DNA of 64,000 bases, taken from UHGV virus genome UHGV-1370141; one strand, written 5' to 3'. The position numbers were made by a program, and so were the translations under genes. This document shows, piece by piece, positions 1,732 to 64,000 of this stretch (within the stretch, counting starts at the first letter, position 1; every line of letters starts with the position of its first letter). The DNA comes from a virus. A model generated the notes under the pieces. It did no database searches. It saw only the letters and a list, made by a program, of their open reading frames with translations, and was not told where the DNA came from.

Positions 1732-1779
1732 GATATAGCTCCTAATTAGGTATTCGATAAATGAGTATTACGTAATTCT

Positions 1780-1803
1780 CTCACCTAAGTAATATATATC
1801 TGA
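1780..1803 (-). promoter_or_regulatory. AT-rich promoter-like motif (class 1)
   Basis: transcribed strand TCAGATATATATTACTTAGGTGAG ~50 nt upstream of lipoprotein ATG; near-identical copy at 9569-9593. Confidence 0.45.
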
Positions 1804-1967
1804 AAATATTTTAATTAAAACACCCTCTAAAACGCGCTGTATCGCATTCTGACGACCTTTTATTTTTTAAACACCATTAATCGTCTTAAGGTGTAAAACA
1901 GCGTCTAAGACGCGTTTACGAGTAAATAAAAGGACATCCCGTTACCCACGAAGGTAACGGGATAATT

Positions 1968-4660: not shown

Positions 4661-6031
4661 TTAATCCCTCGAATATCTTAAAAGCAGATACACCATCGGA
4701 ATGTAATAGAACTGTGCGTCTTTCGGGAGCTTATAAACTTCCTCAAACAGTTTTAACGCAATTACCGACGGTAGCGGACGTTTATGCAGGTACAAGTACA
4801 AGCCGTATTCCAACAACGAACTGTAAGAACCGTCGTAGAACGTCTCGCTTAGCAAATACGGTTTAAAGGACAGCGGTAGGAAGGCCGGAATAGACTCCCC
4901 TTCGTTCCCACGATAGTTTTCAACTTCAACCGGTTCAAACGGTTTCCATTCTGGCCACTGACCGGGGAAACGTTGCGCCATCCCGTAACCTGGCTTTAAC
5001 TCTTCCGTAAAGAACCGGGTATCAGAGATCAACGACCACGTTACCGAGTTACGATGTTGCATCGTACGGAAAGTTTTCGTTTGCCACACCGTGCTGTCAC
5101 GTTTGTAATCTGCTAAGAACGTTGGCGACTGTTGCATCAGCGCTGTCCACACCGTTTCAATGTCTTCCACGTTCATCGGTGGATGCGGATAAATCTGAAT
5201 ATCCTTACCTACGGTACGTAACCCCAGCGCGCGCACAAACAGCGCTAAGAACACGTCGTAGTAAGCACGGCTACGCAAACCGTCGCTGTGACGATCGTGT
5301 GGGAACAACAGCGTGGCCGTTTCACCGTCGTAGAAACGTTTCACATACGTCTGTTCAATGTCTTCAATCGCGTCAACGACTTCCAGGAACGCACGGTACT
5401 CTTTCGGTGTGAGAAGTGTATCACCACCTGTCCAGGCACGCTCTGCAACGTAGTAGTATTCACGTACGGTACAACGACGAATCGTTTCTGCGGTTTCTGG
5501 GTCAACTTCGAAGAGTAACGTGTATTCGATGTTGTACGTCGCGACTTTGTTATTCGACATACGCACAACGTTGGTAACGTTAAACAACGCGAAACGACCG
5601 TCACCGATAGGGGCGATGAAAAAGCAACCCTCGTTAGGGATAATCGAATTTGCAATTGTTGCAGCGCCTGACATGCTGAACGTTTTGTTCGTGGTGTCTT
5701 GGCTTCGGTCGAGCGGTGTCGTTACACGCAGCTCCAACCCGATAATTTTCTCCACCTGTTGGTCAGGTGTAAGCACTTTCGAATCGAAAAACTTCTTGGC
5801 GTCGTTTCTTCCTTTCAGGAAGTTAAAGAAGTCCACCGTCCACGCTGACCCTTCCAGATACTTCATTAAGTATTGCTTTGGAATACGGTCTAAATCAGTA
5901 ACGGTTGTACGTGTGGGTTGCGTAACGATATTGGTGGTTTCTTTTACACCGTCCTGTGGTTTATTTAATTCGGGGATAGGCCGGTCTACGGGTTCAAATG
6001 TTGACGGCTTATCACGCTTCGCTTTGAGCAT
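4661..6031 (-). CDS. hypothetical protein (456 aa)
   Basis: ORF track. Confidence 0.6.
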   Translation of the reverse strand: MLKAKRDKPSTFEPVDRPIPELNKPQDGVKETTNIVTQPTRTTVTDLDRIPKQYLMKYLEGSAWTVDFFNFLKGRNDAKKFFDSKVLTPDQQVEKIIGLELRVTTPLDRSQDTTNKTFSMSGAATIANSIIPNEGCFFIAPIGDGRFALFNVTNVVRMSNNKVATYNIEYTLLFEVDPETAETIRRCTVREYYYVAERAWTGGDTLLTPKEYRAFLEVVDAIEDIEQTYVKRFYDGETATLLFPHDRHSDGLRSRAYYDVFLALFVRALGLRTVGKDIQIYPHPPMNVEDIETVWTALMQQSPTFLADYKRDSTVWQTKTFRTMQHRNSVTWSLISDTRFFTEELKPGYGMAQRFPGQWPEWKPFEPVEVENYRGNEGESIPAFLPLSFKPYLLSETFYDGSYSSLLEYGLYLYLHKRPLPSVIALKLFEEVYKLPKDAQFYYIPMVYLLLRYSRD

Positions 6032-9341: not shown

Positions 9342-9545
9342 TTATAGCGCTTTAATAAAACGTTTTACTGCCTGAACCTCTGGGCACTGAGAAACTTCTT
9401 TTCGCTTGTGCGCTATGATGGGTGTCACTAAGCAAACGACATCAGCGGTTGGTGTTTCCACAGTGACCACCATATCTTCGGTTGTCTGGAATTCTTTCTT
9501 GGATTGGAAGCGGTTCATGATAATTCTCCTAAACGTAATAAACAT
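9342..9545 (-). CDS. hypothetical protein (67 aa)
   Basis: ORF track; 5' leader hairpin GAGATTAC-ACA-GTAATCTC directly upstream, no obvious SD. Confidence 0.45.
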   Translation of the reverse strand: MFITFRRIIMNRFQSKKEFQTTEDMVVTVETPTADVVCLVTPIIAHKRKEVSQCPEVQAVKRFIKAL

Positions 9546-9568
9546 GTCGTAAGAGATTACTGTGTAAT

Positions 9569-9593
9569 CTCACTAAGGTAATATATATCTGAG
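9569..9593 (-). promoter_or_regulatory. AT-rich promoter-like motif (class 1)
   Basis: CTCAGATATATATTACCTTAGTGAG on transcribed strand, ~25 nt upstream of 9545 start. Confidence 0.45.
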
Positions 9594-9606
9594 TTTATTT
9601 TTAATC

Positions 9607-25202: not shown

Positions 25203-26504
25203 TTAGGTGATATGGATCAACGGATCGTATTCTTGAACGACGGTTTCTTTACCGTGCATTGCGGCCATTGCCACGGACATAACGTTAGAGAACGCTGACG
25301 AAATATCCGCCGCGATAGCGCGAGGTTCTTCACCTTTCGCTTCGGAGGAGCACGCAGTACAGCAGTCGATGTGGCCGTATTGACATAAGATGGGTCGGCG
25401 TAGGCGCACAACTTTCCCTAGCTGACTATTCAAAAACTCTTCCGTCAGGGAGGTTAACTTCCCATTAACCATCGCATTCATCCCAACGTAACGTTTTACG
25501 TTGTCTTTCGTGATAACCACAGGGTGCGTGAGTTTCGTCCCACAGTCACCTGCAACGATTCGGTGGTTCTGGAAAATCATCTGGATGATACGTACCTGTT
25601 CCCCACCCTTCGCGGTTTCTGCACCACGCGAGAACGAACCTTCACGAATAGAGTTAAATTTCGCGACCAGGTTATCCATTCCCGCCTTATCAACTTCCAC
25701 CAGTGCGTTAGGAATTAACGTATAGTTACCCCCTTCCTGGAAAGACGATTCAATCCCGTACATCAGCATCAACTTTCGACGACGCATTCGTGATTTCGGC
25801 GAGTTATAGAACTCGATAGATTGGTCACCCGACAACCACTGTTTATCCAGTTCGTCCAGTGCTTTTTCTATCTTAACGATCACTGCTGGGTCGTCTAACT
25901 CGTCCTTATGCTTTAACAGCAACGCATCACGTATTTTATACGCATCAGGATGCACTGTAAGGCTTCTAAGTGTACCTGTTGGTGCAATACCAGCGGTTAA
26001 CGGTGCAAGTTCGTGTAAGCCGCTTACAAAGCGTTCTATCATGCTCGGACGAATAGCACCTTCGTTCTCAGGTTCATCGGTCTCGTGATCCAAACAACGG
26101 CGGTGCATCTCTTTTCGGTACTCTAATGGGTTTTGTGAAACGCCCATATACGGTAAACGTGTGCCAAACGCATACCAGATAACAACCCAGTTAAAGATAT
26201 AACGTCCTACGGTAGTAGGAATCGGTCCTTCTAATCCTGGGTAGTCATCGACTTTCAATTCGAACTGTTCTTCGGGAATAAACAGTTCTTGGTCTTTCAC
26301 GCCATCAGTAATGGGCTGCCAATCGCCTTTCCCATCTTCTACCGCGTAATAGTGCGGCATTCCGTCAATATACGTAATATCAAACGCTTCAGGTTCTTCA
26401 CGATTCGACGGGAACACTGACATGTTGAATATTGCAATACGCCACACTAAACGACGCCAGGCTTCAGCTTTACAAGCCGCCACCAGAAACTCAAATCTCG
26501 TCAT
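25203..26504 (-). CDS. hypothetical protein (433 aa), C-terminal Cys cluster
   Basis: ORF track; CQYGHIDCCTAC. Confidence 0.6.
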   Translation of the reverse strand: MTRFEFLVAACKAEAWRRLVWRIAIFNMSVFPSNREEPEAFDITYIDGMPHYYAVEDGKGDWQPITDGVKDQELFIPEEQFELKVDDYPGLEGPIPTTVGRYIFNWVVIWYAFGTRLPYMGVSQNPLEYRKEMHRRCLDHETDEPENEGAIRPSMIERFVSGLHELAPLTAGIAPTGTLRSLTVHPDAYKIRDALLLKHKDELDDPAVIVKIEKALDELDKQWLSGDQSIEFYNSPKSRMRRRKLMLMYGIESSFQEGGNYTLIPNALVEVDKAGMDNLVAKFNSIREGSFSRGAETAKGGEQVRIIQMIFQNHRIVAGDCGTKLTHPVVITKDNVKRYVGMNAMVNGKLTSLTEEFLNSQLGKVVRLRRPILCQYGHIDCCTACSSEAKGEEPRAIAADISSAFSNVMSVAMAAMHGKETVVQEYDPLIHIT

Positions 26505-32459: not shown

Positions 32460-34559
32460 TTACTCAATAATCGTTGCTGCGACAGAATTGTCGTACAACG
32501 AAGCAGGACGTTTACGTGACGTATAGAAACGTACGTTGTCCAAGTTCTTCTGCTGTCCCTCAAACAACAACATCGGGATTGCAGAACGCATCGCAATCAG
32601 TGTATTGTGATCTTCGAAGCGTTTTCCTTCTGCGGCATCGGCATCCTCACTGTCAAACCCTACTGCCGGGAATGGGTTAGTAGGTGACTCAACACGAGAG
32701 ATTGCCAACATAATCGCGATGTGCGTCATCGGAATCCCTTTGAGCTTACGTTGGATATATTTGAACACGTAGAACAACGCATGAGTACATTGTTTTTCCG
32801 TGGCACCACGCATCTGAACGAGGGTAATCGGTTTAACCTTACCACTCTTCTTGCTCAAACGCATTGACTCGTCCGAGAACTGTTCGAAGTTATCTGACTT
32901 GTCCGATGCTACCGAACGTAAAATCAATTCCAACCCTGCTACAAACTCCGCCATAGATTCAGACCGATTCGTATAAATTAGGATCGGCCAGGACGGTTTC
33001 CATCCTTTTAGCGGAACACGCACCGTTTTCTTGCTGGGGAATACGAGCTTATCACGATTCTTCAAGAAGAAGCGAAGGAACGACTTAGAGAAGTTACCGC
33101 AGACGCCCATTCGAACGTCAATCGGATCTTCTGCCAGGATGTTCCCTTCTGCATCTAAACGAACAAACGTAAGGTCATTAATTTCCGGGAGTGCCGTTTC
33201 ATCAATATCGTCCAGGTCTTCATGATACGCAATCTGGCTAATCTCTGAATAGACTTCATCCGAAATTACCAGTTGGTATTCATCCCAGGTACCGTATTGC
33301 GGCTTCTCCAGTAAACTAATCCCTTTAACGGAGTTGTGCTTATACTCCGTGAGATAATCACGCATTCTTGGCGACAAGACCAAGTTCAGCAGATAACGCA
33401 GGAAGTCAAGGTGTTTCGTCGACAGAATACCTTGAGTGCCCTTTTCTGAAATTGCGGTTGACGCAAGGTGACCCGGTGATGTGCCAGGTGACAGGTTATA
33501 AATCAAGTCACCCATACACGTTGCACAGATAGTCTGTCGTGACATCCCTTTGCAACACATCGCGGTACGGAACTCGATAGGTTTGTTCAAGACTTTCTCA
33601 AACTCACCGTCTTCGAATCGTAACCACGGACCACCAGTACCTTCGAAGCGATAACGCATTCCTTTCATCGCTTTGAATTTCGCTTCTTCCAACGGCGAAT
33701 TCGTAAAGGTGTGTCTGTGTACGTGATGTGTACCACAGTCTTCGTAATCGAAGAACATCAGCACGTTAGCCGCTAACTGCAACTTACGCGATGCGTACTC
33801 TGCGTCTGCAATCTTGTCGGTATTATACAGGTGAGAACGCGATGTCGCACCTGCTTCTTTCAGTCGACTGATAACAGAATGCAAGCCGGTGAAGAAACCT
33901 TCCCATACCTGGTTAGAGTACACACGGGAGTCAATCTCTGAAGTCTTACCACGAATGTAAGCCTGGAGAATCTGATCCATTTTCAGTGTGCGGTCTAACA
34001 CAGACATGACAACTGGGTTGTTTGAGAGTCTCGGATCTTTAAAGATTTTCTCAATGAGTTGATAGGCTTCTTCTACCTTATCGTTACCTTCCTCATCGTA
34101 ACCCGTCGGATAGAGTTTAGACCATTCGATAATCAGCTTGAAGTTTTCATGCTGATAAATCTCCATCATCGTATCGTAGTCAATGGTAACACAATACGAC
34201 AACAGGTTTTTCACCGTCAGGTTAAACGCGTTTGCATAAACGTGCTGCGATAACAGGTAACGGGTATCGGCCAGATCCACTCCGGCCTTACGTGCTGCTA
34301 CAGCTGCCAACGACATAAAGCGCAGATGCGCATCGTCAGTTGCCGTGTCGCCATGCTTATACGCCATGTTCGACGAGATTGGCACTTGGGGATAAAACTG
34401 GGTTAATCCCCAATACGGCCAGCTCAACTTAATGTGTCGACCAGACATTCTCAACGTGACCCCATCGTCGAAGGACACGTCGTAAACGCCCCGAAGTAGC
34501 CACACCTGATCCGAATTCAACTTGCACAAGTCTCTTACGTGAACCGGAGTCGCCTTCAT
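32460..34559 (-). CDS. RNA polymerase beta'-like subunit, C-terminal module
   Basis: CATCMGDL ... ASTAISEKGTQGILSTKH resembles bacterial RpoC CAHCYGRDL ... AAQSIGEPGTQLTMRTFH (recalled). Confidence 0.7.
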   Translation of the reverse strand: MKATPVHVRDLCKLNSDQVWLLRGVYDVSFDDGVTLRMSGRHIKLSWPYWGLTQFYPQVPISSNMAYKHGDTATDDAHLRFMSLAAVAARKAGVDLADTRYLLSQHVYANAFNLTVKNLLSYCVTIDYDTMMEIYQHENFKLIIEWSKLYPTGYDEEGNDKVEEAYQLIEKIFKDPRLSNNPVVMSVLDRTLKMDQILQAYIRGKTSEIDSRVYSNQVWEGFFTGLHSVISRLKEAGATSRSHLYNTDKIADAEYASRKLQLAANVLMFFDYEDCGTHHVHRHTFTNSPLEEAKFKAMKGMRYRFEGTGGPWLRFEDGEFEKVLNKPIEFRTAMCCKGMSRQTICATCMGDLIYNLSPGTSPGHLASTAISEKGTQGILSTKHLDFLRYLLNLVLSPRMRDYLTEYKHNSVKGISLLEKPQYGTWDEYQLVISDEVYSEISQIAYHEDLDDIDETALPEINDLTFVRLDAEGNILAEDPIDVRMGVCGNFSKSFLRFFLKNRDKLVFPSKKTVRVPLKGWKPSWPILIYTNRSESMAEFVAGLELILRSVASDKSDNFEQFSDESMRLSKKSGKVKPITLVQMRGATEKQCTHALFYVFKYIQRKLKGIPMTHIAIMLAISRVESPTNPFPAVGFDSEDADAAEGKRFEDHNTLIAMRSAIPMLLFEGQQKNLDNVRFYTSRKRPASLYDNSVAATIIE

Positions 34560-36799
34560 TATTCTTCGCCCCTTTTCATTTTCACCAATTCAAACCCTTC
34601 ACAGCTGTGAATGTTTTTCATCATTCTGTCAATCTGCGAATCTCCTAATGGGAGCTTATTCCGGTCTACCAGTACGCCCGGATTGGAAGGAGTTTGAGAT
34701 CGGTACAGCCCTACTAAAATCTCTCGATGCACAGCAGGGTTATTTGCCCTATCGTGAACCTCTTCGTAGTTACCTGGACCATAACCCGCTAATAGTCGTT
34801 CTTCCGAAGGACCAGCCCATTTCAGCGTTTTATAGTTTACCGGATACGAACCACGTCCTTGGTTAGACGCATCAATCGTGCCCAGGTAGTTCAGGTACAT
34901 CGACGAAATACTTGAGAATTCACGTCCCGTTTTATCAAGCCGTAATGTTTCTACACCACCCACGTAAAACTCGTCTTTTGTCCATTCCTGTTTACCATCG
35001 TAATTGGTAATAAGCAGTTTCGACTTACGGGGTTTAAACTCACCTAAACGTTCACTGATTTCCACCGGAGTGTCATCAAGTTCGTGAGGTAAGTAAATGC
35101 GGATGGTGAAATCGTAAATCTCTTTAAAGAGTTCTCGCTGCAAATCCTCCGTAGGATGCGTAGCCTGTAACGTGTTCGCCCATTCTGGATTATAGCGTGA
35201 AAGGTAGTCCATCAGGATTTCCCAACACTCGCCAATACGCCCTTCATCCAGCATCGGTTTAAGACGCATCTTCAGTTGTTCAGATGCTGCTGACCAATAC
35301 ATGTGGAACAGCGCGGCGTAAGTAGAACGACGAATTACGGCGTTCATTGAACGTAGTACGTGAACACGTTCGCCGAACTCGTTAATTGGCATCTGTTCAA
35401 CTGGCAGTACACGACCCACAATCCCTTTCGTACCCGAACGGTCGGTAATCTTAGAAGACACCGTCACCGGGATCGGATAACGTACCGCGATACGAATTGT
35501 GTACGTGTTGATAGGATCGCTTAATCCACGCTGAACAGGTGAAGTCAGTTTAGAGATAATCTGTTGACTTACGTTCTCTTTACCGTATTCGCCGCGACGA
35601 ATTGCATCTTCAATCACTCCGCGAATTTCTTCACGAAACTCTGCGTAGACTTCGTACGTTTCAGATGCGAAAGCTTTCTCCAGCAACACACACGCTTTGG
35701 GAGACCAGATAACGTTTTTATCTCTCGACACGGAGAAATAGAAGCGAACAATCGCATTGTAGTAGTCCTTTAACGCCAATGCGTATTTGTCAAGCTCACG
35801 TTTGTTCTCTTCAGTACAGTTAATGTTATTCGTTCCATTACCGCATGACGTTTCATCACGCCAAACCTGAATATCAACAATGCGTGTTCCGCTACGTTCC
35901 ATCAGTTCGTGGTTGTTTTCCAAACGTGCTTTATAGTGTATCGGATCGGCATCCACGTAATCACAGTTATCGAAGAACGGAGAAACGTGTTGGGTTTCTC
36001 CTAAGGTTGCATCGATCGCTGCGTACAGGTCATCGAAACGACGAGAAGCGATAACTAACCCGTCATCACGAATCGCTTCACCCACGTCTGGGAAATAGCG
36101 CGGTACACGATTCCCCTCGGGATCGTTATAGCCGTAGGTATCCAGCAAGAATTCATCTTCACGTAAGGTTTTCTCAATAACTTTCAACCCATACCCGTGA
36201 AGCTTCTGTGCCGCTTCTTCGGAAATCGTGTAGGAATCTTCGATAATGTCTGGATGTGAAATGGTAACCGTTGGCAGCACCGCACTGTCTGCGAATTCAC
36301 CATCCACCATGCACGGCATTGTCGTCAGGATTTCATCCTTTTCTAACTGGTCGGTTTCACCACGTAACAAACTGCGCAGTTTTGGCGATTCCCATTTCTC
36401 GGAAGAGAACACGTTATCGTGATTAGTATAAAAGTTAATCTCGATAACATCTATCATTGTTTTGCCCGGAATACGGCATTCTGCACGACGGAAGAATATC
36501 GCGTGTTCCAGCGCACGGGAATCCCCACGACGGCCATAACGGGTAAACGTTGCGCGACGTTGTCTACCTTCCTTAGTTGTGTAATGACAGATGCTCCCAC
36601 TGTCTTCCACAATATCGTTAAACAGAAAATCGTGGTAATTGGTATCTGCTCCCGTAAAGTGAGGTGACGGCTCAGGATGATCAATCGGCACCGAGGACTT
36701 CATATGGTTACCTACCATCGATGCCCTTGCACCTGACACCTGTGCGATATTAACTTCACGGTCAGCGACGCTGCTCAATAGCTCAACTGGCGTTTTCAT
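34559..36799 (-). CDS. RNA polymerase beta-like subunit, C-terminal module
   Basis: SKITDRSGTKGIVGRVLPVEQMP resembles RpoB [24 protein letters not shown] (recalled); RBS AACCTAAAGGAG. Confidence 0.7.
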   Translation of the reverse strand: MKTPVELLSSVADREVNIAQVSGARASMVGNHMKSSVPIDHPEPSPHFTGADTNYHDFLFNDIVEDSGSICHYTTKEGRQRRATFTRYGRRGDSRALEHAIFFRRAECRIPGKTMIDVIEINFYTNHDNVFSSEKWESPKLRSLLRGETDQLEKDEILTTMPCMVDGEFADSAVLPTVTISHPDIIEDSYTISEEAAQKLHGYGLKVIEKTLREDEFLLDTYGYNDPEGNRVPRYFPDVGEAIRDDGLVIASRRFDDLYAAIDATLGETQHVSPFFDNCDYVDADPIHYKARLENNHELMERSGTRIVDIQVWRDETSCGNGTNNINCTEENKRELDKYALALKDYYNAIVRFYFSVSRDKNVIWSPKACVLLEKAFASETYEVYAEFREEIRGVIEDAIRRGEYGKENVSQQIISKLTSPVQRGLSDPINTYTIRIAVRYPIPVTVSSKITDRSGTKGIVGRVLPVEQMPINEFGERVHVLRSMNAVIRRSTYAALFHMYWSAASEQLKMRLKPMLDEGRIGECWEILMDYLSRYNPEWANTLQATHPTEDLQRELFKEIYDFTIRIYLPHELDDTPVEISERLGEFKPRKSKLLITNYDGKQEWTKDEFYVGGVETLRLDKTGREFSSISSMYLNYLGTIDASNQGRGSYPVNYKTLKWAGPSEERLLAGYGPGNYEEVHDRANNPAVHREILVGLYRSQTPSNPGVLVDRNKLPLGDSQIDRMMKNIHSCEGFELVKMKRGEE

Positions 36800-36828
36800 T
36801 TTAATGCTCCTTTAGGTTGATTCGGTAG

Positions 36829-36844
36829 GATAATATCTATCTCA
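36829..36844 (-). promoter_or_regulatory. AT-rich promoter-like motif (class 2)
   Basis: plus-strand ATAATATCTATCTC ~30 nt upstream of the 36799 start; same core at 58186, 60572, 50513. Confidence 0.4.
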
Positions 36845-36862
36845 CTTAATTTAGGAACAACT

Positions 36863-40359: not shown

Positions 40360-42021
40360 TTACTGATTAAACCACGCCACTTCTTCACATTTCTTCCTGT
40401 TCTGAATTAACAGGAATTCTGCTAACATGTTCTGAAGTCGTGGGTGTGGTGTGTAGCCTAACATCACTTCTCCACTCCGAAGCATTCTTGCTGCTTCAGG
40501 TGTTGCCCTGAGATTGAAGTTAAACGGCGCAATATGTTCACGTACCAACAACGTCAAAGACGTCTTCAATGTTGACTGTTCGTAGATATTGCGATTGGTA
40601 CGGTATGCCTGAGGATAAAATCTATCCGATTTTATTTTGATCTCATTATCAATAGGTTCGATTGGATAACCCCCATTGTTGGGATCTAAAACCATTTCAC
40701 AGCTTAGCAACTGTGCAATCTCATGCATTCCGTAGTAGATATAAATCGCTTGTGCGATCCCCATTGCATTCTTAAACGCAGCAGCGTCAATGTCCTTATA
40801 GGTTCTGCGGTCAGCAAAGCGATGCAGTGCGGCTGCAACCAACCACTCGTACAGTTCGTAGAACGGATATTGATGATTCAGGTGAATAGAATCAATCAGT
40901 ACCTTAGCATCCGCAGGAGCGATATCGATCCCTAAGGAACGAACCACACGACGATAATCGTTGAAAAACTCTTGGGTACGAACAAACTCTTTCATCGGCG
41001 CTTTAGAGCGCGCTTGAACCAAGTCTATCGCACAAGTTTTCCCTTTCTCACCGTTAAACATAATCTTTTCAGGATGCGCTTTTAAGATGACGTTCTGTGA
41101 CGAAATCTTTCCTGCAAATCCTGTTTCGATTTCCTGCTTGATATTAAAGTACATCCCTGCAACGATGTTGTTCTCCACCATCGTACCTGGAGGTAACTCT
41201 GCGCCGATGAGTTTCATGGCGATTAAGCGAATCACCGCGAATGCCATGATGTACTCTTCCACCATATCCGTACCGTAACCACAGATAGAGGCCAGCACCG
41301 TTAAGTTCGCACTGTTCGGTCCTTTATTGCCACCGTCCTGTACTTTCGAAATCACCGACACTAAGAAGTCCCGCAATTTACTGATTGCAGGTAGTTGTGC
41401 TATCTCGGTGTCGTAAAGCAATTCCATGCAATGGGTTAAGTTATAAACGCTTTTCCGCTTGGAGTCCACAGCGGCGCGTGTTGTTGGGAAAGCATCCATG
41501 ACCAAGAATACCGGAATGAACGGTTTTACCATCAACGACAGTATGACCAGTTCGTAGTAGTCTTGTACGATATACGTCATCTCTTTCGGATAGTTAGATG
41601 ACATTTCTTCGTAAGTTTCGTGGACGTTTTGAGGAATCCACACGGAGCTTTGTGGATAGAGTTGGCGGAATCTGTCCGCGTGGTGGAATTTGGCAATTTG
41701 TGCAACAATCTCTGGCGCATGTTTACGAATCGTTTCGGGTTCTTCATTACCCAGCATTTCTAACTCTTCGTACGCCGAGAATAATTCTTCCTTTTCCTCC
41801 GACGTTAACGTTGACCAATAACGTTCGATTTCCATGAACATAATTTTGTCATGGGTAACCACTTTGCCGGAGCTATCGCGTACGTCTGGCACATTCGCAT
41901 CTTTGCGTCCATTACGGAATCCGTTAAACCCTACTTCCTTATCACCGTAACTAATAATGAGACGGTCGCGATTTTTCTCAATACGCATTTTAAAATCTCC
42001 AGGGATAACATAGTCGACCAC
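40360..42021 (-). CDS. hypothetical protein (553 aa)
   Basis: ORF track; GTG start. Confidence 0.6.
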   Translation of the reverse strand: MVDYVIPGDFKMRIEKNRDRLIISYGDKEVGFNGFRNGRKDANVPDVRDSSGKVVTHDKIMFMEIERYWSTLTSEEKEELFSAYEELEMLGNEEPETIRKHAPEIVAQIAKFHHADRFRQLYPQSSVWIPQNVHETYEEMSSNYPKEMTYIVQDYYELVILSLMVKPFIPVFLVMDAFPTTRAAVDSKRKSVYNLTHCMELLYDTEIAQLPAISKLRDFLVSVISKVQDGGNKGPNSANLTVLASICGYGTDMVEEYIMAFAVIRLIAMKLIGAELPPGTMVENNIVAGMYFNIKQEIETGFAGKISSQNVILKAHPEKIMFNGEKGKTCAIDLVQARSKAPMKEFVRTQEFFNDYRRVVRSLGIDIAPADAKVLIDSIHLNHQYPFYELYEWLVAAALHRFADRRTYKDIDAAAFKNAMGIAQAIYIYYGMHEIAQLLSCEMVLDPNNGGYPIEPIDNEIKIKSDRFYPQAYRTNRNIYEQSTLKTSLTLLVREHIAPFNFNLRATPEAARMLRSGEVMLGYTPHPRLQNMLAEFLLIQNRKKCEEVAWFNQ

Positions 42022-42121
42022 AAAGATAAAATCTATCTAAGATAACTTCGACTGTGTTCTGCACACATACACGATAAGAAGCCCCAGGATTCCCTGGGGC
42101 TGAATTATTGTTTTACGTTAA

Positions 42122-46498: not shown

Positions 46499-48456
46499 CT
46501 ACCCCGCCATTAAGATTAATTCTGAGTCGATGGCGATACCCGCCTCCAGATCTTCTTCGGTATCGCGTAAGAAACGGTTTTCCATGCTGATAAGCTCATT
46601 GTGTAACACCATGCTGCTAGACACTTCGTCTACGTTTGTGCTGGACATAAATCCGTTATCTGGGCGATAAGCCAGCGCCAAATCCATCTCCGTGGTATCG
46701 ACTAAAAGTCTAACCTGTAATTGGTCGCCGTCGAAATCCTGTTTGTCCACTCCATTCCTTTTGGAGCAGGTGTGCAATGACACCCTCCCATGTTTTCACA
46801 TGGGCACAGACTATATCATAACCGTAGGTATTGCTACCCGTAGGTCTCCCCCACTTCGCCGCTAAACTAAGCAGCTACTCTACTCGGTTTTACCCTTTCG
46901 ATAGTCGTTGAACGATTTTCATCGCTGCTGGTTATCCATTATCACAACCCTTAGCATTATTGGTTAGCATAGGCTATCTTACGAATTGTTTCTGACTTTC
47001 GCCACCCTGTCGGGATCGTAAGCTTTAGGAGTTTCCAGCAATTCGAGGGATACGCACTAGAGGTTTCCCGTCTAGTGGGCCAAATTTTAGCATTCGGAGC
47101 TTTGATGACGCGATCGGAGATACGTAACGAACACTGTGTAACATCAGGGTTAACAGCTGAGATAAATAATGTCTGAATAGACAACTGTACAAGCGTCGGG
47201 TTTCGTAGCGCTGATATCATCAGGCCGTAACCGCCACGAGACTCCTTAATAAGTTCGTTGATAATTTCATGAACCAACGGTACGTACTGCATTGATGCAA
47301 ATGCAATAACACGTTCACACTGCCGTGGTGTGAAGTTCCGTCGACCGAGTTTGTTTTCAATAGCTACAGATTCTAACGTCACTAGCCAACGCCAAGGTGC
47401 AATAACCTTCATAGCGTCATGCGGTTCTGAGATTGGAGAGATTGTTACACGACCACCCCACGGGATGTGTGTTGAACCTAACTTGGCACGATAGAATCCA
47501 GGTTTACCTTCCATCACCTCCTGACGATGGTCAATATAGAAGTACGCTAACTGGCGATTTGCTTTTAATGCGCGACTAATAATGAAATGGGTTGGGATGC
47601 GTCGTGCATTAGTATAAAGTAACGCGATGTTCTTAACCGCGTCTATTGCACCGGTATAAACAGGATCGATAAAGATACCCTGACGTCGTTCCTCCGTAAC
47701 GATCAGTTTGGGTGAAATGATTGGAAGATGAACCGGAAAGAAAGTGTGTGATTGTTCTTCGAAGAACTTTTTCCACTCTAAGCGAGTACGTTCGCTCTCA
47801 TATCGGTTATTTTTCGTTGGTGGATAAATTTCTTTCCAGACTTCAGGAGAAGTTAAGATATTGAATATTGTTCGATGGTGGTCAATAAAATTCCTAATGC
47901 CGCGTGGAACTTGATACTCGCTAAAGATACGTTTGATTATTCGGGATCGAGTACCTTCGTCTTTATCAGGTTTATAGCACGGATCTAACATCCACATCAA
48001 TAAATCAGAACCACGTTCTACGGTCACTTTGTTTCGGTTAAACTTCTTAAGTTTAGAACCGAAGAAAGCGTTAAACATCGACCAGAATCGTGGGTTAATA
48101 AAGTTGCCTATTTCCTCCGGGGCACGAATCCAGACTTCTGAAACAATACGATGTTCTGTCACTACATAGCCGCAGGTAGGACATCGCATACCGAGATTAT
48201 ATCGATGAACGATAGGTGCTTCACAATCAATACTACAAATGGGTGCCGAATTTAGCGTCTCGTCGACTGTCCGGTTCTGTAAGATTCGGTTAATCAACTC
48301 TGACGTCTCAATGGTGTCTTTATATTTCGCAACATCATTGATAATCATCGGCGGTTTATAGCCCTTTTCCTCCGCCTCTTTGAAAGCGTCACGTAACATT
48401 TTATCGTGACTGATTAATCGCCCTGATACACCGAAGTATTGTAATCTGTCTTTCAC
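46499..48456 (-). CDS. RNA polymerase beta'-like subunit, N-terminal module; intron-interrupted (exon 1 ~47150..48456, exon 2 46499..~46783)
   Basis: exon 1: Zn finger CSIDC...CPTCG, GKPGFYRAKLG...GGRVTISP, ISALRNPTLVQLSIQTLF; exon 2: HTCSKRNGVDKQDFDGDQ ... FMSSTNV. Confidence 0.65.
46784..47150 (-). other. group I self-splicing intron (no internal ORF)
   Basis: minus-strand GTTCAACGACTA (R-like) and GATATAGTCTG (S-like) P7 elements, P9-like hairpin before exon 2, frame change between exons, no RBS; boundaries approximate. Confidence 0.65.
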
Positions 48457-48470
48457 GCCAAATCCTCAAC

Positions 48471-48512
48471 AAAAAAAGAGAGGGAAGGGACAGGGGGTTT
48501 TTCCCCTGTCCC
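48471..48512 (-). terminator. intercistronic terminator/attenuator hairpin
   Basis: A-run then GGGACAGGGG-loop-CCCCTGTCCC between the 612-aa gene and the RNAP gene. Confidence 0.55.
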
Positions 48513-48544
48513 TAATTACTACCAATTACGCACTACTACATCTG

Positions 48545-50383
48545 TCAGACAGGGCTGTAGTTACCGGAAGCGAATGACATGTTGTAGTCACTGCCGAAGG
48601 AGTTCGGGCCGTTACCAGACAGAGTGAAGTTTTCACCGCCGTTGTTGAAGAACAACGTATTAGCCAGGCTATTGACTGCGGTAACACCATTCACTTGGAA
48701 GATGCAGTTATCACGCACGTAGTCCAGCAGCGCTTTGGCGAATTTCGGGTTGATTGCCAAATCGGTGGACTCGCCAGTTACGACCGGCTGTTTGCTGCCG
48801 AACAGGGAAGCGGCCAGCTTCAGCAGGTACAAACGCTGTTCAGTCGCGTTGAACTGACGGTGTGAGTAAGATTGCGCGTACAGGTAAGTGTAGGCATCGT
48901 GTTGGTTATCACCAACTTTGCTCAGAACAGACACCAGGTCCTGATCCTGGAAGCTACGTTTCTGGCTGTTGCTGAAATACTGACCGGAAACAGTCGGTAC
49001 GCCAGCGATAACAACGTGGTTGCAGGTGATGGTATTAACTTTCAGCATTTCAGCGAAACGCTGCGTGAACACCGTAGCACCTTTCGGAGCCATGTTGTCC
49101 AGGATGGTCAGGATGTTAGACAGTGTACCAGTGTTACCCTGGGAAACTTCACTGAACATCGTGGAGAGACCACCGATACCGTTACCAGCACGATGGTTCA
49201 CAACCAGCGCAGCTTCTGGGTAGGCGAACATGTTCAGGCACTCTTCGATAGCTTCGCGGTTGCCATCGATTTTGCTCAGGTCCGGACGTTTGTCACCCCA
49301 CTCTACGTATTCCATAACGCGGGAGAAACGACGATCGGTTTTGTTGAGAGAGTGCATGAAGCGTTCACGCCAGCCACCGATAGCGGCGATTTCTGCAAAG
49401 GCGGCCAGTTCAATCAGCTGACGTTCGATTGGTACCATAGCCCCGGAAGACTGAGAGTCCATCAGAGAAACAACAACTTCTGCTTGCAGCTGTTTGTAAT
49501 CCTGTACGCCATTTTCAGGTGCACGGCGGCCAGTGTAACGCAGGTTGATGTAACCCACACCCGCAACGCTCGGATAACCCTGAACACGTTCAGAGGACAT
49601 CAGCGTCGGGTTAGTATCGAAGCTACCGGTCTGAGTGTGTTCAACCTGAACCATCAGGTCAGCACGTTGTGCAGAGCCGTTAACGTCAGTCAGAGAACCT
49701 TCGTCTACCGCAGTTACCTGTGCAACGAAGCGATCGCCACGAGTCAGTTTCAGCTGACCCAGGTAGCCCGGAATACGGCCAAAGATACCCAGAGTCAGCT
49801 GACCCATCAGCTGGATAGCCCACTCTTCGGTCAGCGTTTTACCCAGGTCTGGAATGCAGTTCATTACCATGAATTGCACAGACGACAGGTTCTGCTGTTC
49901 GCAGATTTGTTTGGTGATGGAATCCATTACGCCAGCCTGACCGAACAGAGATGCCAGGGTGTAATAAGTTTCTTTACCGTTGATTTCACGGAAGCGTACA
50001 GACTGACCGTGTTCGAAGAACAGGATACCGTACATCCAGTGGCTGCCGTTTTCATCTGCTGGCGCAGCAACGTATGCCGCAGAACCCATTTCTGGATTCA
50101 CACCATCGATAACACCGCAGCGGAATTTGCTCAGGTACGGGTTACGTTCAACCATCTTCGCAATCAGCGCGGTGAAATGTGAAGCGGCAGAAACGTAGGA
50201 CATATAGCCGAACGCTTTATCGAAAGTGGAGATATTCTTAGACATACCACCGAAAGCATTTGCTGCGTGGGTGTTATCCACACTGCCTGCACCAGCACCT
50301 ACACCACCAAAAGACGGAGCCGGGTCTACACCAGCAGCGCCAGCATTTACGTTGTTAGGAATTTCGTTAAACTCTTTAGCCAT
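48545..50383 (-). CDS. chmA: 612-aa protein with Gly/Ala/Ser-rich terminal extensions; chimallin-like nuclear-shell candidate (alternative: structural protein)
   Basis: flexible N- and C-terminal segments, strong RBS, own terminator, immediately upstream of the RNAP beta' gene; identity inferred from context only. Confidence 0.45.
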   Translation of the reverse strand: MAKEFNEIPNNVNAGAAGVDPAPSFGGVGAGAGSVDNTHAANAFGGMSKNISTFDKAFGYMSYVSAASHFTALIAKMVERNPYLSKFRCGVIDGVNPEMGSAAYVAAPADENGSHWMYGILFFEHGQSVRFREINGKETYYTLASLFGQAGVMDSITKQICEQQNLSSVQFMVMNCIPDLGKTLTEEWAIQLMGQLTLGIFGRIPGYLGQLKLTRGDRFVAQVTAVDEGSLTDVNGSAQRADLMVQVEHTQTGSFDTNPTLMSSERVQGYPSVAGVGYINLRYTGRRAPENGVQDYKQLQAEVVVSLMDSQSSGAMVPIERQLIELAAFAEIAAIGGWRERFMHSLNKTDRRFSRVMEYVEWGDKRPDLSKIDGNREAIEECLNMFAYPEAALVVNHRAGNGIGGLSTMFSEVSQGNTGTLSNILTILDNMAPKGATVFTQRFAEMLKVNTITCNHVVIAGVPTVSGQYFSNSQKRSFQDQDLVSVLSKVGDNQHDAYTYLYAQSYSHRQFNATEQRLYLLKLAASLFGSKQPVVTGESTDLAINPKFAKALLDYVRDNCIFQVNGVTAVNSLANTLFFNNGGENFTLSGNGPNSFGSDYNMSFASGNYSPV

Positions 50384-50430
50384 TTTATTTATCCTTTAAA
50401 GGTTTAATACAATTGTAGTGTTGGTTCACG

Positions 50431-50546
50431 TAGATAACATATACCTGAGATATTTTAGAATGCGTCTAGAACACACATAACTCAAAATAGTTAACCACCG
50501 AACCATCACATAGATAATATCATTCTCAGATATTTTTCAATGTGAG
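50431..50546 (+). promoter_or_regulatory. two tandem ~35-bp promoter-like direct repeats in a divergent intergenic region
   Basis: TAGATAACATATACCTGAGATATTTTAGAATGCG and TAGATAATATCATTCTCAGATATTTTTCAATGTGAG. Confidence 0.4.
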
Positions 50547-50589
50547 TAGAATGTGACCGTTTCCTATGTGTAACCCCAAGGAGTCAGTC

Positions 50590-51651
50590 ATGTTCAGTCA
50601 AGCCGAGTTAAACCAAGCAGTCATAAAGGGGCGCTACGAAGACCCTTCTGCTATACAATTGGTCAATGCCGTAAAAAATAATAACCAGCGCATTCGCAAC
50701 TATTTAGAATCGATTCAAACCAGCGTTGGTTCTGGTCATCTCGTCCTAAAAATCTTAGCAGCTATCGGCTATGCCGGTGAACCCACGTACGAAGAAATCG
50801 AATGGGCTTGTCGTCGAAAGCTGTCAGATATCGGCAACGCTCTACGCTTAACTTCTGTGGGGGAGTATGGTCAAGTTTTTAACGGCGCTTTTATAGAAGG
50901 TCAGGATGAAATCATCTCGTTAGTTGCGAGACCTGTCGATCCTAATCTTTCTTTCCGTGACTACACACCGGCGGTTTACCTTTATCACGAATACACGAAT
51001 CTTAACTGGACGCTCGGTAACGGAAAACCCCGAGGGATCAGCATTATCGAGATAAATCTGGTTGCACTACTGTGGCAATATGTTCTTGCTGAACAATACT
51101 ACCGAACACAACCAGAACCCATCACGCGCTTGGTATACGCGCAGCGACACATCATTTACAGGATGTTACCCAGTTACATGGATATCGCTTTATTAAATAT
51201 TCATCGTGCGATTGCCTTCGGTAAAGAGATAGAAGAAGAAAACCCGTTACGAGTTATTCCGACTCCGCCTCTACGCGATTTAGCAATCCGTCACGCGAAA
51301 GCGATTTCAAAATCGTTACGTGCTGGTAAACCTCTACCTGCGGTTGTCATGGCTCACATACCTCAGATTTTCGAAGACCCGAATAAACCGTCCACGGCGT
51401 TGGATCGAATTCTGTTTAAAGAACCCGGTTCGACAATTCAAGGCAGTTGGCATCGAAATATCGTCAACTGGTATTGGGCATTGTTCTGCCTGCAATACGA
51501 CAACACGAGCATGGGTAAATACAAATCTAATCTGATGGTAAGGATTGCCCGTTTCGAGGATGCAAAGATTCTGGAGAAACTTACACGTTCGGCAAGAAAC
51601 TACTACCGACACGAGTTAATTCTGCCATTATACAGTGCGCTCGAAAAATAA
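50590..51651 (+). CDS. hypothetical protein (~353 aa)
   Basis: start moved to second ATG, which has RBS AAGGAG 6 nt upstream. Confidence 0.6.
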   Translation: MFSQAELNQAVIKGRYEDPSAIQLVNAVKNNNQRIRNYLESIQTSVGSGHLVLKILAAIGYAGEPTYEEIEWACRRKLSDIGNALRLTSVGEYGQVFNGAFIEGQDEIISLVARPVDPNLSFRDYTPAVYLYHEYTNLNWTLGNGKPRGISIIEINLVALLWQYVLAEQYYRTQPEPITRLVYAQRHIIYRMLPSYMDIALLNIHRAIAFGKEIEEENPLRVIPTPPLRDLAIRHAKAISKSLRAGKPLPAVVMAHIPQIFEDPNKPSTALDRILFKEPGSTIQGSWHRNIVNWYWALFCLQYDNTSMGKYKSNLMVRIARFEDAKILEKLTRSARNYYRHELILPLYSALEK

Positions 51652-57384: not shown

Positions 57385-57919
57385 GAAGCTCCATCATTGC
57401 AATCTGGCCACGTGGTGTTAAGTGGGGTTCTATCTCAACCGTAAGGTAAGGATTAAACGGTTGGTTTACCGCCTCGAACCCTTGCTTTACTAATTGCTCA
57501 ACCTCACACAACAACACATCGTAACAATCATCAAAAGCCAATCCCAATAGATACGACTTTGGACGTAAAACACAAACTTCACGCTGTTCAAACCCTACGG
57601 GTGTTTCGCCAAACACGGTCTGTTCAATACGTAACCGACGCGTTTGGATCGTTTTCGGTGGGCTCATTTTGCCACTGTTCACCAGAAGGTTCGTCAATAC
57701 AAAAGAATCTGTGTAGTCTTCTAAAAAGTCCGGTAATCGTGTATTAGGCATTCGCGGAATAGAATAAAAAATGTCCTCCAATGCAGTGTGTATCAGTTGT
57801 ACAGTAACGGCCTGTTTCTCCTTTACGGTCATCCGCAAAGCGGGAGCGTAGGTTGTTTCTTCCACCGCTGCCCAGAAGTTATGATAAACTGTAGCTGGAT
57901 TGAAGTGTATTTTGACCAC
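57290..57919 (-). CDS. hypothetical small protein, operon member
   Basis: ORF track; probable internal start near 57832 overlapping upstream stop. Confidence 0.45.
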   Translation of the reverse strand: MVKIHFNPATVYHNFWAAVEETTYAPALRMTVKEKQAVTVQLIHTALEDIFYSIPRMPNTRLPDFLEDYTDSFVLTNLLVNSGKMSPPKTIQTRRLRIEQTVFGETPVGFEQREVCVLRPKSYLLGLAFDDCYDVLLCEVEQLVKQGFEAVNQPFNPYLTVEIEPHLTPRGQIAMMELRVGEDIRFVHYRNCFPEKRYDPNHPTRTRDV

Positions 57920-58152
57920 GTTTGCACAACTCCGTTTTTGTAAGAAAATGGACTGGAATGGTCACGACCTAAAGCACCAATCATAAACCAAGCGTCCGAA
58001 CCAAAATATCTTTCTGCAATCTTTAAGCAATCGCTGGGTAGGTTGTGTATCCCAGGATAAATCAGTTCCTGCATCGCTGTTAGAATTTCCTCAGGACGAT
58101 AGCGAACTGAATGGCTAGAGTCTGGCAGAAAACCAAAAAGTACGCGCGACAT
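57829..58152 (-). CDS. hypothetical small protein (107 aa), first gene of operon
   Basis: start moved to MSRVLF ATG preceded by AAAGGAGTATTTAAAGTTA; the track's longer N-terminus would cover the promoter-like motif. Confidence 0.5.
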   Translation of the reverse strand: MSRVLFGFLPDSSHSVRYRPEEILTAMQELIYPGIHNLPSDCLKIAERYFGSDAWFMIGALGRDHSSPFSYKNGVVQTWSKYTSIQLQFIITSGQRWKKQPTLPLCG

Positions 58153-58185
58153 TAACTTTAAATACTCCTTTAAGGGAACATCACA

Positions 58186-58200
58186 GAGATAATATCTATA
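58186..58200 (-). promoter_or_regulatory. AT-rich promoter-like motif (class 2 variant)
   Basis: plus-strand GAGATAATATCTATA ~35 nt upstream of the corrected start. Confidence 0.4.
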
Positions 58201-58318
58201 CGAAAAAAGTTCGAGTATAGTGCGCACAGGAAGGGCATAGAGTGTATTTTTTAGTAGTGGTGTAGTTACCCATTACCCGATCCTATGAACCGTTTTACAG
58301 AGCTAACAGGAGCACACA

Positions 58319-60079: not shown

Positions 60080-60520
60080 TTATACTAATTCGGCAACGTG
60101 TCGTTCGTGGTAGAGCTCTGCTAACTGCTTCGTTTTAATACGTAACTCACCTCTGTCGTAAACTAATACCCGACCTGCCCCGTTTGTTCCTAACTCGGTA
60201 TAAATCGCTAAACCGTACCGTCTTACAAATTCAATTGCCGGGAACGTAAATTCTTCACCGTCACAACGAAACACCAACATACACCACGGATTAGGGTTTA
60301 GGTGCTTACGCTCTTTCCCGTCCGCCCACCGTAAACTAAATTCATTCCGATTACGATTCAACACACGTTCAACGAATCGCTCTACTAACTTACCGGTTGG
60401 CCCATCTTCAGGTAACGCTTGCCACACGGAGAAATGTCGTGACAGAAACGGACGAATAACCGCCGCTTCTTCGAATGAATAACCCATACCCATTAATCCT
60501 TCAATCGCATCTAATTTCAT
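60080..60520 (-). CDS. hypothetical protein (146 aa)
   Basis: ORF track. Confidence 0.55.
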   Translation of the reverse strand: MKLDAIEGLMGMGYSFEEAAVIRPFLSRHFSVWQALPEDGPTGKLVERFVERVLNRNRNEFSLRWADGKERKHLNPNPWCMLVFRCDGEEFTFPAIEFVRRYGLAIYTELGTNGAGRVLVYDRGELRIKTKQLAELYHERHVAELV

Positions 60521-60563
60521 TTTATCAGTTCCTAAAAAGTCGAAGTAAACGTTTCACGCGAAC

Positions 60564-60588
60564 ACTCACTAAAATAATATCTATCTCT
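60564..60588 (-). promoter_or_regulatory. AT-rich promoter-like motif (class 2)
   Basis: plus-strand ACTCACTAAAATAATATCTATCTCT ~45 nt upstream of 60520 start. Confidence 0.4.
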
Positions 60589-60601
60589 AAAATTTTGCGA
60601 T

Positions 60602-61388: not shown

Positions 61389-62041
61389 TTCTGTTACCTC
61401 GTTCTGTTACTACTACTCGTTCTGTTGTACGTCGCTATACCCCGACGTGTGGGTTAATGGGACGCGTTGAACGTCTGTTGAGGCGCAGCAGGCAGTGGCA
61501 GCAATGACAGCAAGGGCAGCAATGGTACAAACGCCAACGCGAATAAAAAACGCTACTGTCACTGAACACAGCTTCAGAATACTGACAATAACGCAAAAAG
61601 GGTGTCGCTAACGGGTGTCGAGCCCCAGCCTCGGTGTGTAGCCACGTCACCAGGCATAGCGACAAAGTTCGGTACTGGTCAAACACAGCATGACATGGGA
61701 CGATGAAGGTTTACAGGTGATCATCGACCAGTACCGTCGAGTTAACACGTAACTCTCAATTCACATTACAGGGTATTCACGTTACACTTAGGGGAAATAC
61801 CCAATAATTAAATTCTTGGTGGGTGCAGGTGGGAGGTTTTATCCTCCCACCGTACAACCGTTTAGGTGGTCTAACCACCAGGGTCTCACGACCCTAACGT
61901 AAGTCCGAACTTAATCGGTAGGTGTTTACACGTTTTTAAGGAGCTTTCTACCCGTGAGCAAGAGCAGAAGTTATCAGAACAACCGACGCTCAGTTGAAGG
62001 CTGACGAGTTTGTAACTCTTGTTCGATTGCTCTAATCTGGG

Positions 62042-62114
62042 CGACCAATGGCAGGATTCGAACCTGCGAAATAACCGATTATTAGTCGGGTGTTAATTCC
62101 TCTAACTTCAATGG
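62042..62114 (-). tRNA. tRNA-like gene, possibly degenerate (anticodon loop reads as AAU)
   Basis: hand-folded cloverleaf: T-arm GCAGG-TTCGAAT-CCTGC, D-arm GTTA/TAAC with GG loop; but A at position 8, a U-U acceptor mismatch and a C-U anticodon-stem mismatch. Confidence 0.4.
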
Positions 62115-62124
62115 TCTAAATCCA

Positions 62125-62969: not shown

Positions 62970-63649
62970 ATTAAAATCTCCTGCCGTGGTTTGTGTCACA
63001 CCAACAGGAAACTCTGTAAAAAATAATTCAGCTGCGTACCGGCGTTTCTCAACGGGAGTACGCACCCCTCTCGTCTTTGCGAGCCGTCAAGCTAGAGGAC
63101 ATCACACTGCCAGCGCTACCTGGAGCAGGGTTGTTTCGACGCAACGTCGTAATTCGGATTCTGGCCGCACCTCTGGGAGCGCATCCCACCGTCGGCTGCC
63201 CGCAGGTAAGTTCTACGGACCTCTCGCCAACGTCGCCCCCAGAGGCTGCCACGGTTCACTCGGATTTTCTCATGTCGGCCACGCGTCGCTGATAGCGCGG
63301 CTTCCCCCAAACTTCGTAAGTCGCGGGAACGGTACCGAGCACCTGAATTCGTGGGGTTTACCAACCCCTGAGGTTTTTATCCGAAGTCACGGAAACCCCA
63401 TAGTAAAACAAACCGCCAGTGTTAGGCCGAACGTTTTGTTTTTCCCAGCACACGGTGAACTAAAATCCATGCACTTGAAAAAACACCCCTGGCCAATAAC
63501 CAACCAGGGGGTTCGAGCTCTGCTGAATCATCGCAGACAGTAATCGTGTTGAGCTGTGAGCAGTAATACCTGAACTCCGAAAAATCTTCGTGGTTGTAAA
63601 TCAACCCCACGCAAATCCTCCGAACATACCATAGGGTTTTAACGTTCGG

Positions 63650-63858
63650 AAAAGGGGAATGGGGGTTTACCCCTTGGGTCAGGTGTTCAGGATCTCCCCG
63701 GAAGGGTAACCCCTACCCGATCCCCCAGGTGGGGATTTTACCCTGGCGAATTACCCCGGGTACGATTTTCGGTTTTTCCGGAAAATACCGCTCACCGATC
63801 CCCACCCCCTCACCGGGGGTCAGAGCGAGATCAGATCTCATAATAAGGATCGCGCGCG
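63650..63858. repeat. GC-rich cluster of short palindromes and G/C tracts
   Basis: GGGGAATGGGGG, CCCCAGGTGGGG, TTTTCCGGAAAA (perfect 12-bp palindrome), CCCCACCCCCTCACCGGGGG, GATCGCGCGCG; no credible ORF. Confidence 0.45.
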
Positions 63859-63977
63859 TTTTATATATATTTATATATAATATATATTATATATAATAAT
63901 TATATTATTAATATATTTATTTAATATATTTATATTTATTAAAATAAATATATATTAAAATATATAATTAAATAATA
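63859..63977. repeat. 119-bp tract of pure A+T
   Basis: no G or C between ~63859 and ~63977; TATATA/ATTAT-type low complexity. Confidence 0.7.
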
Positions 63978-64000
63978 CCAAAAGGTATTATTATTTTGAT

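Follow-up and report, generated by a model that had tools for sequence, protein, structure and literature searches.

The spacer that separates a minus-strand 612-aa ORF from a divergent plus-strand gene in the virus genome UHGV-1370141 (positions 50384-50589 of the window, the whole stretch of 64,000 nucleotides that was analysed) carries a direct repeat, which raises the question of what its two copies do and which of the two genes they serve. A repeat search recovered a single family of two copies, each of 46 nt, identical at 34 of the 46 positions (74%) and set 80 nt apart from start to start. With 1000 dinucleotide-preserving shuffles of the 206-nt spacer as the null model, the best ungapped 46-nt repeat had 23.4 matches on average and never more than 30, and none of the shuffles (0/1000) reached the observed 34. 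The tandem repeats reported for this divergent region by the first-pass annotation, made from the sequence alone, are thus present and longer than the 35 bp noted there, and its consensus was right except for one dropped column; as searched, one base too long, it gave zero matches in the window. The corrected degenerate pattern, built from the two copies, reads TAGATAAyATnnnyCTsAGATATTTT on the plus strand and finds no further match in the window even at three mismatches. The CAGATAT core ascribed to each copy occurs on the plus strand only in the second, the first having GAGATAT instead, and the plain word AGATATTTT, with at most one mismatch allowed, is no commoner in the window than expected (19 matches versus 19.3). 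The (C/G)AGATAT words on the plus strand are reverse-complementary to the upstream A/T-rich part, AAAATATCTs (AAAATATCT(G/C)), of a promoter motif on the other strand, and this part together with the following sAGrTAT/sAGAAT stretch forms an imperfect inverted repeat.

The identity of the two flanking genes was established from their relatives. The phage of the window is a jumbo phage related to the Erwinia phages Asesino, phiEaH2 and Stratton and to the Salmonella phage SPN3US, to which its DNA shows similarity, at about 73%, only within part of one gene, and a near-identical uncultured contig exists in IMG/VR. The 612-aa protein has 54.8% identity, across 92% of its length, with SPN3US gp244 (YP_009153316.1), and is 55-58% identical to the Asesino and SPN3US homologues; YP_009153316.1 was named as the SPN3US chimallin (ChmA) by Laughlin et al. 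2022 and Enustun et al. 2023 (PMC9365700, PMC10643120). By its homology to gp244 and this literature, the 612-aa gene is the chimallin gene. Searches of the protein against the solved PDB chimallins and phiKZ gp54 with phmmer, a six-homologue profile, BLASTP and hhalign gave no match, which is to be expected because an identity of only about 10% is reported between the SPN3US and 201phi2-1 chimallins (PMC9365700). The gene order is that of phiKZ, with a DNA polymerase, an opposite-strand gp52-like gene, the shell protein and a gp55-like RNA polymerase (RNAP) subunit, so that the synteny covers phiKZ gp52, gp54 and gp55. The divergent gene encodes a distant homologue of phiKZ gp52, annotated as 'structural head protein' (BLASTP E = 2e-7), and its start agrees with the annotated starts in relatives. 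The coordinates of all these features are collected in Table 1.

Table 1. Features of the chimallin / gp52-like spacer, its neighbours and the further motif sites of the window.
Feature	Position	Strand	Remarks
P2, distal copy of the putative early promoter	50503..50540	-	minus strand TTGAAAAATATCTGAGAATGATATTATCTATGTGATGG; -10-like core ATATTAT at 50514-50520
P1, proximal copy of the putative early promoter	50423..50460	-	minus strand TTCTAAAATATCTCAGGTATATGTTATCTACGTGAACC; core ATGTTAT at 50434-50440
Repeat copy 1	50426..50471		P1 plus ~10 nt of common upstream sequence
Repeat copy 2	50506..50551		P2 plus common upstream sequence
Same motif	36819..36856	-	upstream of adjacent RNAP beta-like genes 34559-36799 and 32460-34559, homologues of phiKZ non-virion RNAP genes
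Same motif	42015..42052	-	upstream of 542-aa gene 40360-41988, positional homologue of SPN3US gp236 / phiKZ gp68, non-virion RNAP subunit
Same motif	58178..58215	-	upstream of 107-aa gene 57829-58152
Same motif	60563..60600	-	upstream of 146-aa gene 60080-60520
Same motif, subtype CAGATATATATTAC	9567..9604	-	directly after a terminator hairpin, upstream of 67-aa gene 9342-9545
Same motif, subtype CAGATATATATTAC	1778..1815	-	upstream of a small unannotated minus-strand ORF starting near 1743
Chimallin (ChmA, nuclear-shell protein) gene, 612 aa	48545..50383	-	RBS AAGGA at 50392-50396; faced by P1 and P2
Terminator-like 11-bp G+C-rich hairpin	48486..48513	-	just past the chimallin stop, followed by a pyrimidine/T7 tail
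Divergent gene, 353 aa	50590..51651	+	likely ATG 50590, RBS AAGGAG 50578-50583; phrog_3938
TTCCTATGT box	50561..50569	+	22 nt before ATG 50590; invariant in all 13 aligned sequences

When all non-coding stretches of the window were listed, it came to light that the repeated unit recurs. Read on the minus strand, an A/T-rich block, (C/G)AG, AGATA(G/T)ATATTA(T/C)CT and nnGTGA follow one another at six further sites besides P1 and P2. A position weight matrix trained on these six sites (anchors 1801, 9590, 36842, 42038, 58201 and 60586), with P1 and P2 left out, gives 33.6 bits to P2 and 28.5 bits to P1, against a maximum of 16.0 bits in 100 shuffled windows; membership of the motif, strand and position of both copies are matters of direct observation. 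All eight strong matches lie on the minus strand, each upstream of a minus-strand gene, and four of the six training sites are situated between two minus-strand genes and, therefore, can serve only a minus-strand gene. The core GATATTAT occurs six times on the minus strand of the window and never on the plus strand.

Two subtypes of the motif can be distinguished. Subtype A, CAGATATATATTACyTAGGTGAG, is very uniform and precedes small genes of unknown function; it has seven sites in SPN3US, counting the one at 4413, whose core is ATAGATATTAC, and it probably represents the 'class 1' promoters of the first-pass annotation. Subtype B, AGATAGATATTATCTnnGTGA (the AGATAGATATTATCT type), is less uniform and precedes chimallin and the non-virion RNAP genes. 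The two subtypes may constitute distinct timing classes. A weaker copy of the motif is located at 40604-40641 on the minus strand (16.0 bits), within the 3' part of the gene in the gp68 position and about 260-280 nt before the next gene; its position is kept in SPN3US, where the counterpart at 25212-25249 (+) scores 20.4 bits, and it may be an internal promoter. Among the other features of the window are a tRNA-Ile gene (anticodon AAT) at 62040-62116 on the minus strand, in the long non-coding stretch 61389-62124, and the region 63544-64000, G+C-rich with repeated GGGG...CCCC blocks and then, for about 150 nt up to the window end, low-complexity sequence made almost entirely of A/T, which may be a genome-end or replication-related region.

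The window-trained matrix was also applied, with a cut-off of 16 bits, to the complete 240-kb genome of the relative SPN3US (NC_027402). It returned 23 matches above the cut-off, 22 of them on the main coding strand, and the sole opposite-strand match overlaps a same-strand one. All 22 of these precede an annotated gene on their own strand; the leaders deduced for them measure 26-135 nt at 19 sites and 233-261 nt at the remaining three. The core GATATTAT has 16 occurrences on the main coding strand but a single one on the opposite strand, and in an unsupervised count of 7-mers in the SPN3US upstream regions, pieces of the motif are top-ranked, alongside ribosome-binding sites and terminator tails. 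Two copies before one gene are found in SPN3US only at chimallin (93 nt apart) and at gp190 (198 nt apart). The gp190 pair, at 72472-72509 and 72670-72707 of NC_027402, is flanked by the major head protein gene and gp190.

The motif belongs to a class described from the phiKZ-like jumbo phages (Chimalliviridae). According to reviews and transcript-mapping papers, motifs of this class can be recognised computationally before the early operons of every such phage; transcript mapping, wherever it was carried out, has identified them as early promoters whose AT-rich core is centred near -10, and the polymerase credited with reading them is the virion RNA polymerase, which is brought into the cell together with the DNA (PMC7598289, PMC11512511, PMC13282480, PMC8244752). 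The predicted early-promoter consensus sequences of N1M2, OBP, 201phi2-1, EL and phiKZ have been tabulated in the paper on the Klebsiella phage N1M2, the OBP/N1M2 consensus being TBYAWWWWWTTTCARRYAKATATTATYWAAGTGWA (PMC7058600). The N1M2 consensus, itself drawn from predicted promoters, is matched by P1 at 32 of 35 positions, the best value in the whole window, and by P2 at 28 of 35; for the OBP consensus the values are 30/33 and 28/33, respectively. As few as 9-10 positions of the window reach 26 matches (9 of ~128,000 for the N1M2 consensus). Sites read directly from the phiKZ genome, such as aaaaaaatttgagatTTATATTACtaaattg, have the same layout. Common to all are the A/T-rich block, T(T/C)(C/G)AG, the core (K)ATATTA(Y) and, after about 4 nt, GTG, as well as the placement at operon starts on the gene's own strand, including the non-virion RNAP genes and chimallin. 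The phiKZ motif is TATATTAC, whereas the consensus of the SPN3US-like clade prefers AGATAGATATTATCT, and, unlike other phiKZ-like early promoters, the motif stands before chimallin here in two full tandem copies, 80 nt apart.

The non-virion RNAP genes are transcribed by the virion polymerase from early promoters (PMC7598289, PMC13282480). In the window the motif precedes the homologues of these genes, as recognised by homology and synteny with phiKZ, and since they are needed before the polymerase that they encode exists, this supports the assignment of the motif to early transcription by the virion polymerase. For P1 and P2 themselves, the labels 'early' and 'virion RNA polymerase' are by analogy with phiKZ, 201phi2-1 and AR9. 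The repeats are members of an already well-known promoter class and reveal no new mechanism. The preferred reading, held with good though incomplete confidence, is that they are two same-orientation copies of an early promoter, read by the injected virion RNA polymerase and both facing the minus-strand chimallin gene. The duplicate promoters that the first-pass annotation had put forward as one possibility are supported, in that both copies match the early-promoter motif and are placed to control chimallin, an early gene in the phiKZ model.

The published rule by which the AT-rich element is centred near -10 (PMC7598289) puts the presumed start sites close to the last G of GTG, near 50507 for P2 and near 50427 for P1, with leaders of about 124 nt and about 44 nt, respectively, and their SPN3US counterparts at about 15633 and 15726; the timing and the activity of both copies are, like the polymerase, deduced. 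The core of P1, ATGTTAT, is one base off the otherwise invariant consensus ATATTAT, and two more changes are found nearby in comparison with the relatives at 72% identity. The ATGTTAT variant, which is also present at three SPN3US sites, is probably tolerated, and, judging by its sequence, P1 in this window may be weaker through it. A difference of another kind concerns base 50522 in the distal copy, where the window has GAGAATGAT versus GAGAAAGAT in the otherwise 99%-identical contig IMGVR_UViG_3300045988_095954 (L006/L007); this one base cuts the motif score of the distal copy from 38.1 to 33.6 bits.

Lack of conservation in related phages was named by the first-pass annotation as part of what would refute its proposal, but the repeats are retained in all of those compared. 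The comparison covered 17 related loci with 12 distinct upstream sequences, whose chimallins are 46-99% identical to that of the window, from Erskinevirus, Seoulvirus, Machinavirus and uncultured contigs (including Asesino, phiEaH2, SPN3US, pEa_SNUABM_29, ChrisDB, Huxley and several IMG/VR contigs). Each of the 17 loci has exactly two matches on the chimallin strand, one 51 to 55 nt and the other 134 to 147 nt before the ATG of that gene, and the opposite strand has none; the core-to-core spacing is 80 nt in the subgroup of the window and 89-93 nt in the others. In an alignment of 13 sequences the columns without variation are concentrated in four places, namely both cores, the GTGA/GAAC segments, the ribosome-binding site and the box by the divergent gene, and the spacer between the copies shows indels and little identity. 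Each copy has its own conserved flank, GTGAnnGTTC at P2 and GTGAAC at P1. Orthologous copies from different phages (0.79 alike for P2 and 0.72 for P1) are more alike than the two copies within one phage (0.62), and, therefore, the doubling is older than the divergence of these genera, and the two copies have been maintained separately. In one IMG/VR contig whose chimallin is 72% identical to that of the window (L008), the distal copy reads CTTAGCTAGA, the same as its own proximal copy, and in the otherwise near-identical L009 it reads CTGAGAAAGA; these four clustered changes look, from the sequences, like gene conversion between the two copies.

Beyond this clade, the chimallin genes of phiKZ, 201phi2-1, PA1C, Goslar, RAY and Noxifer are preceded, when inspected by eye, by one clear early-type core 70-90 nt upstream, and this likeness of a single early promoter before chimallin is shared by phiKZ, 201phi2-1, RAY and Goslar. 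By the same inspection, a second early-type copy is not evident before chimallin in phiKZ, 201phi2-1, PA1C, Goslar and Noxifer, and is possible in RAY. A literature search returned nothing on the promoters of SPN3US-like phages or on tandem chimallin promoters, and the conserved doubling of the promoter before chimallin appears to be unreported in the literature that was searched.

The closest parallel is provided by phiKZ itself, in which differential RNA-seq identified two start sites for the chimallin gene PHIKZ054, the early motif being found at the primary one and a middle motif at the secondary one (Wicke et al. 2020, PMC8244752); the middle-type element consists of an A-rich repeat and TACT near -22, without the early -10 core (PMC8244752). 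In both cases one gene has two promoter elements, about 80-93 nt apart in the SPN3US-like clade and, by reading of the sequence, about 89 nt in phiKZ. However, in phiKZ the second element is a middle-type one without the TATATTAC core, whereas both are complete early-type motifs in 17/17 SPN3US-like loci. At 5455-5500 of phiKZ, about 89 nt upstream of the chimallin early core, the sequence aaaaataaataaTACTcagattgtaataatatgtagtgaac represents the upstream half of an early promoter, the TATATTAC core being absent, and probably corresponds to the published middle-type promoter of the secondary start site, in the same relative position as the distal copy of the SPN3US-like clade.

In an unlikely reading, the doubled promoter might be a conserved two-input control of chimallin instead of plain redundancy, with the copies used at different times or places. 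One copy could, for example, be read by the virion polymerase inside the early infection vesicle, with the other acting later, in parallel to, and perhaps with common ancestry with, the early and middle start sites of phiKZ chimallin, and a structure in the P2 leader may stabilise or regulate the longer mRNA. The predicted P2 leader (50427-50507, minus strand) folds into an extended hairpin (-31.5 kcal/mol, z = -2.3), in which the 5' end of the leader and the start region of P1 are paired. What stays invariant among the relatives is limited to the GUUC/GAAC base of this stem; one pair covaries and the RNAalifold energy is -5.6 kcal/mol, which points weakly to a conserved structure; no known RNA family was found in 50200-50800 at E <= 1.

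A plain temporal division would make only one copy a true early promoter of the virion polymerase; the second would come into use later, through the non-virion polymerase or with a different factor, or be a decaying relic. The early primary and middle secondary start sites of PHIKZ054 (PMC8244752) are in its favour, as are the A-rich...TACTCAGATTG element about 89 nt upstream of the phiKZ early core, in the relative position of P2, the separate conserved flanks of the two copies, and the variant core of P1 in the window. However, both copies score as full early motifs, -10 core included, in every relative, in contrast to the core-less middle element of phiKZ, and both are under constraint, which speaks against a relic; the division is considered unlikely.

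Much less probable is it that the repeats are not promoters and serve as operators, binding sites for a phage or host regulator of the divergent gene pair. Two direct repeats in a divergent spacer are the classic layout of operators, and each copy contains the imperfect inverted repeat ATATCT s AGrTAT. However, the motif exceeds 30 nt and occurs genome-wide with one copy per operon start, chimallin and SPN3US gp190 excepted; its strand is without exception that of the gene downstream, its distance from that gene is promoter-like, in many cases a terminator comes directly before it, and it matches motifs with mapped start sites in phiKZ and 201phi2-1.

The orientation that the first-pass annotation had given to the duplicate promoters, toward the plus-strand gene at 50590, has to be reversed, and that reading is now hardly tenable. 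It had in its support the CAGATAT and GAGATAT words on the plus strand of the copies, to which three weak sigma-70-like matches (9/12) on the same strand could be added; however, these matches are within noise (1.1 +/- 1.1 expected) and out of register with the repeat. The best plus-strand matrix score within 50364-50609 is 2.3 bits, versus the 33.6 and 28.5 bits of P2 and P1 on the minus strand, and all the other strong sites of the window face minus-strand genes. The supposed target is, besides, a homologue of a virion head protein with an invariant TATG box of its own before the ATG. The phiKZ late promoters have the consensus T(-3)ATG(+1), with the start at G (PMC7598289), and by analogy the TTCCTATGT box with its TATG, which lies in the block ACATAGGAA, invariant in the 13-sequence alignment, may be a late-type promoter of the gp52-like gene. 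The eight-base word CCTATGTG is rare in the SPN3US genome, with one occurrence per strand, and no extended late-promoter motif was found around it there. The longer start proposed by the ORF finder, ATG 50566, coincides with the same TATG and is probably not a real start.

Host sigma-70 promoters for chimallin are just as hard to credit: P2 does contain TTGAAA and TATTAT on the minus strand, but with a spacing of 15 nt, the conserved CAG, AGATA and GTGA are not sigma-70 elements, a scan of the minus strand in 50300-50700 for -35 TTGACA and -10 TATAAT at 16-18 nt found no sigma-70-like site, and the development of phiKZ-like phages proceeds independently of the host RNA polymerase (PMC13282480).

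With the two copies taken as early promoters that face chimallin, transcription from P1 and P2 would start near 50427 and 50507, respectively, and yield nested chimallin mRNAs from the first moments of infection, and the predicted effect of the doubling is that it likely raises, or makes robust, the very early supply of chimallin mRNA. The P1/P2 pairs of bacterial rRNA are likewise two same-direction promoters before one highly expressed gene and produce nested transcripts; this is a functional analogy only, the polymerase and the promoter grammar being unrelated. Downstream of chimallin, the hairpin just past the stop folds at -28.2 kcal/mol (z = -3.5), and it was missed by a simple terminator scan because the T run begins 9 nt past the stem. 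The matrix scan of the window found no early motif before the following gp55-like RNAP beta-like gene (46957-48456). This gene, with a strong hairpin before it and no early motif of its own, is therefore probably fed by read-through of the hairpin, a step that would set a high ratio of chimallin to polymerase subunit.

As a result, the direction of the element has been corrected, it has been assigned to a known promoter class, and predicted start sites have been given. The clade-specific doubling is a modest refinement of that class and not a new kind of system. The set of sites provides a promoter model for annotating early operons in a poorly annotated clade, and P1 and P2 are two compact predicted early promoters usable in phage engineering. 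The SPN3US / Erskinevirus / Machinavirus group as a whole retains two probable early promoters before chimallin, a protein needed very fast after infection for the protein shell that shields the phage DNA, and thus the control of its supply bears on the escape of these phages from host defences.
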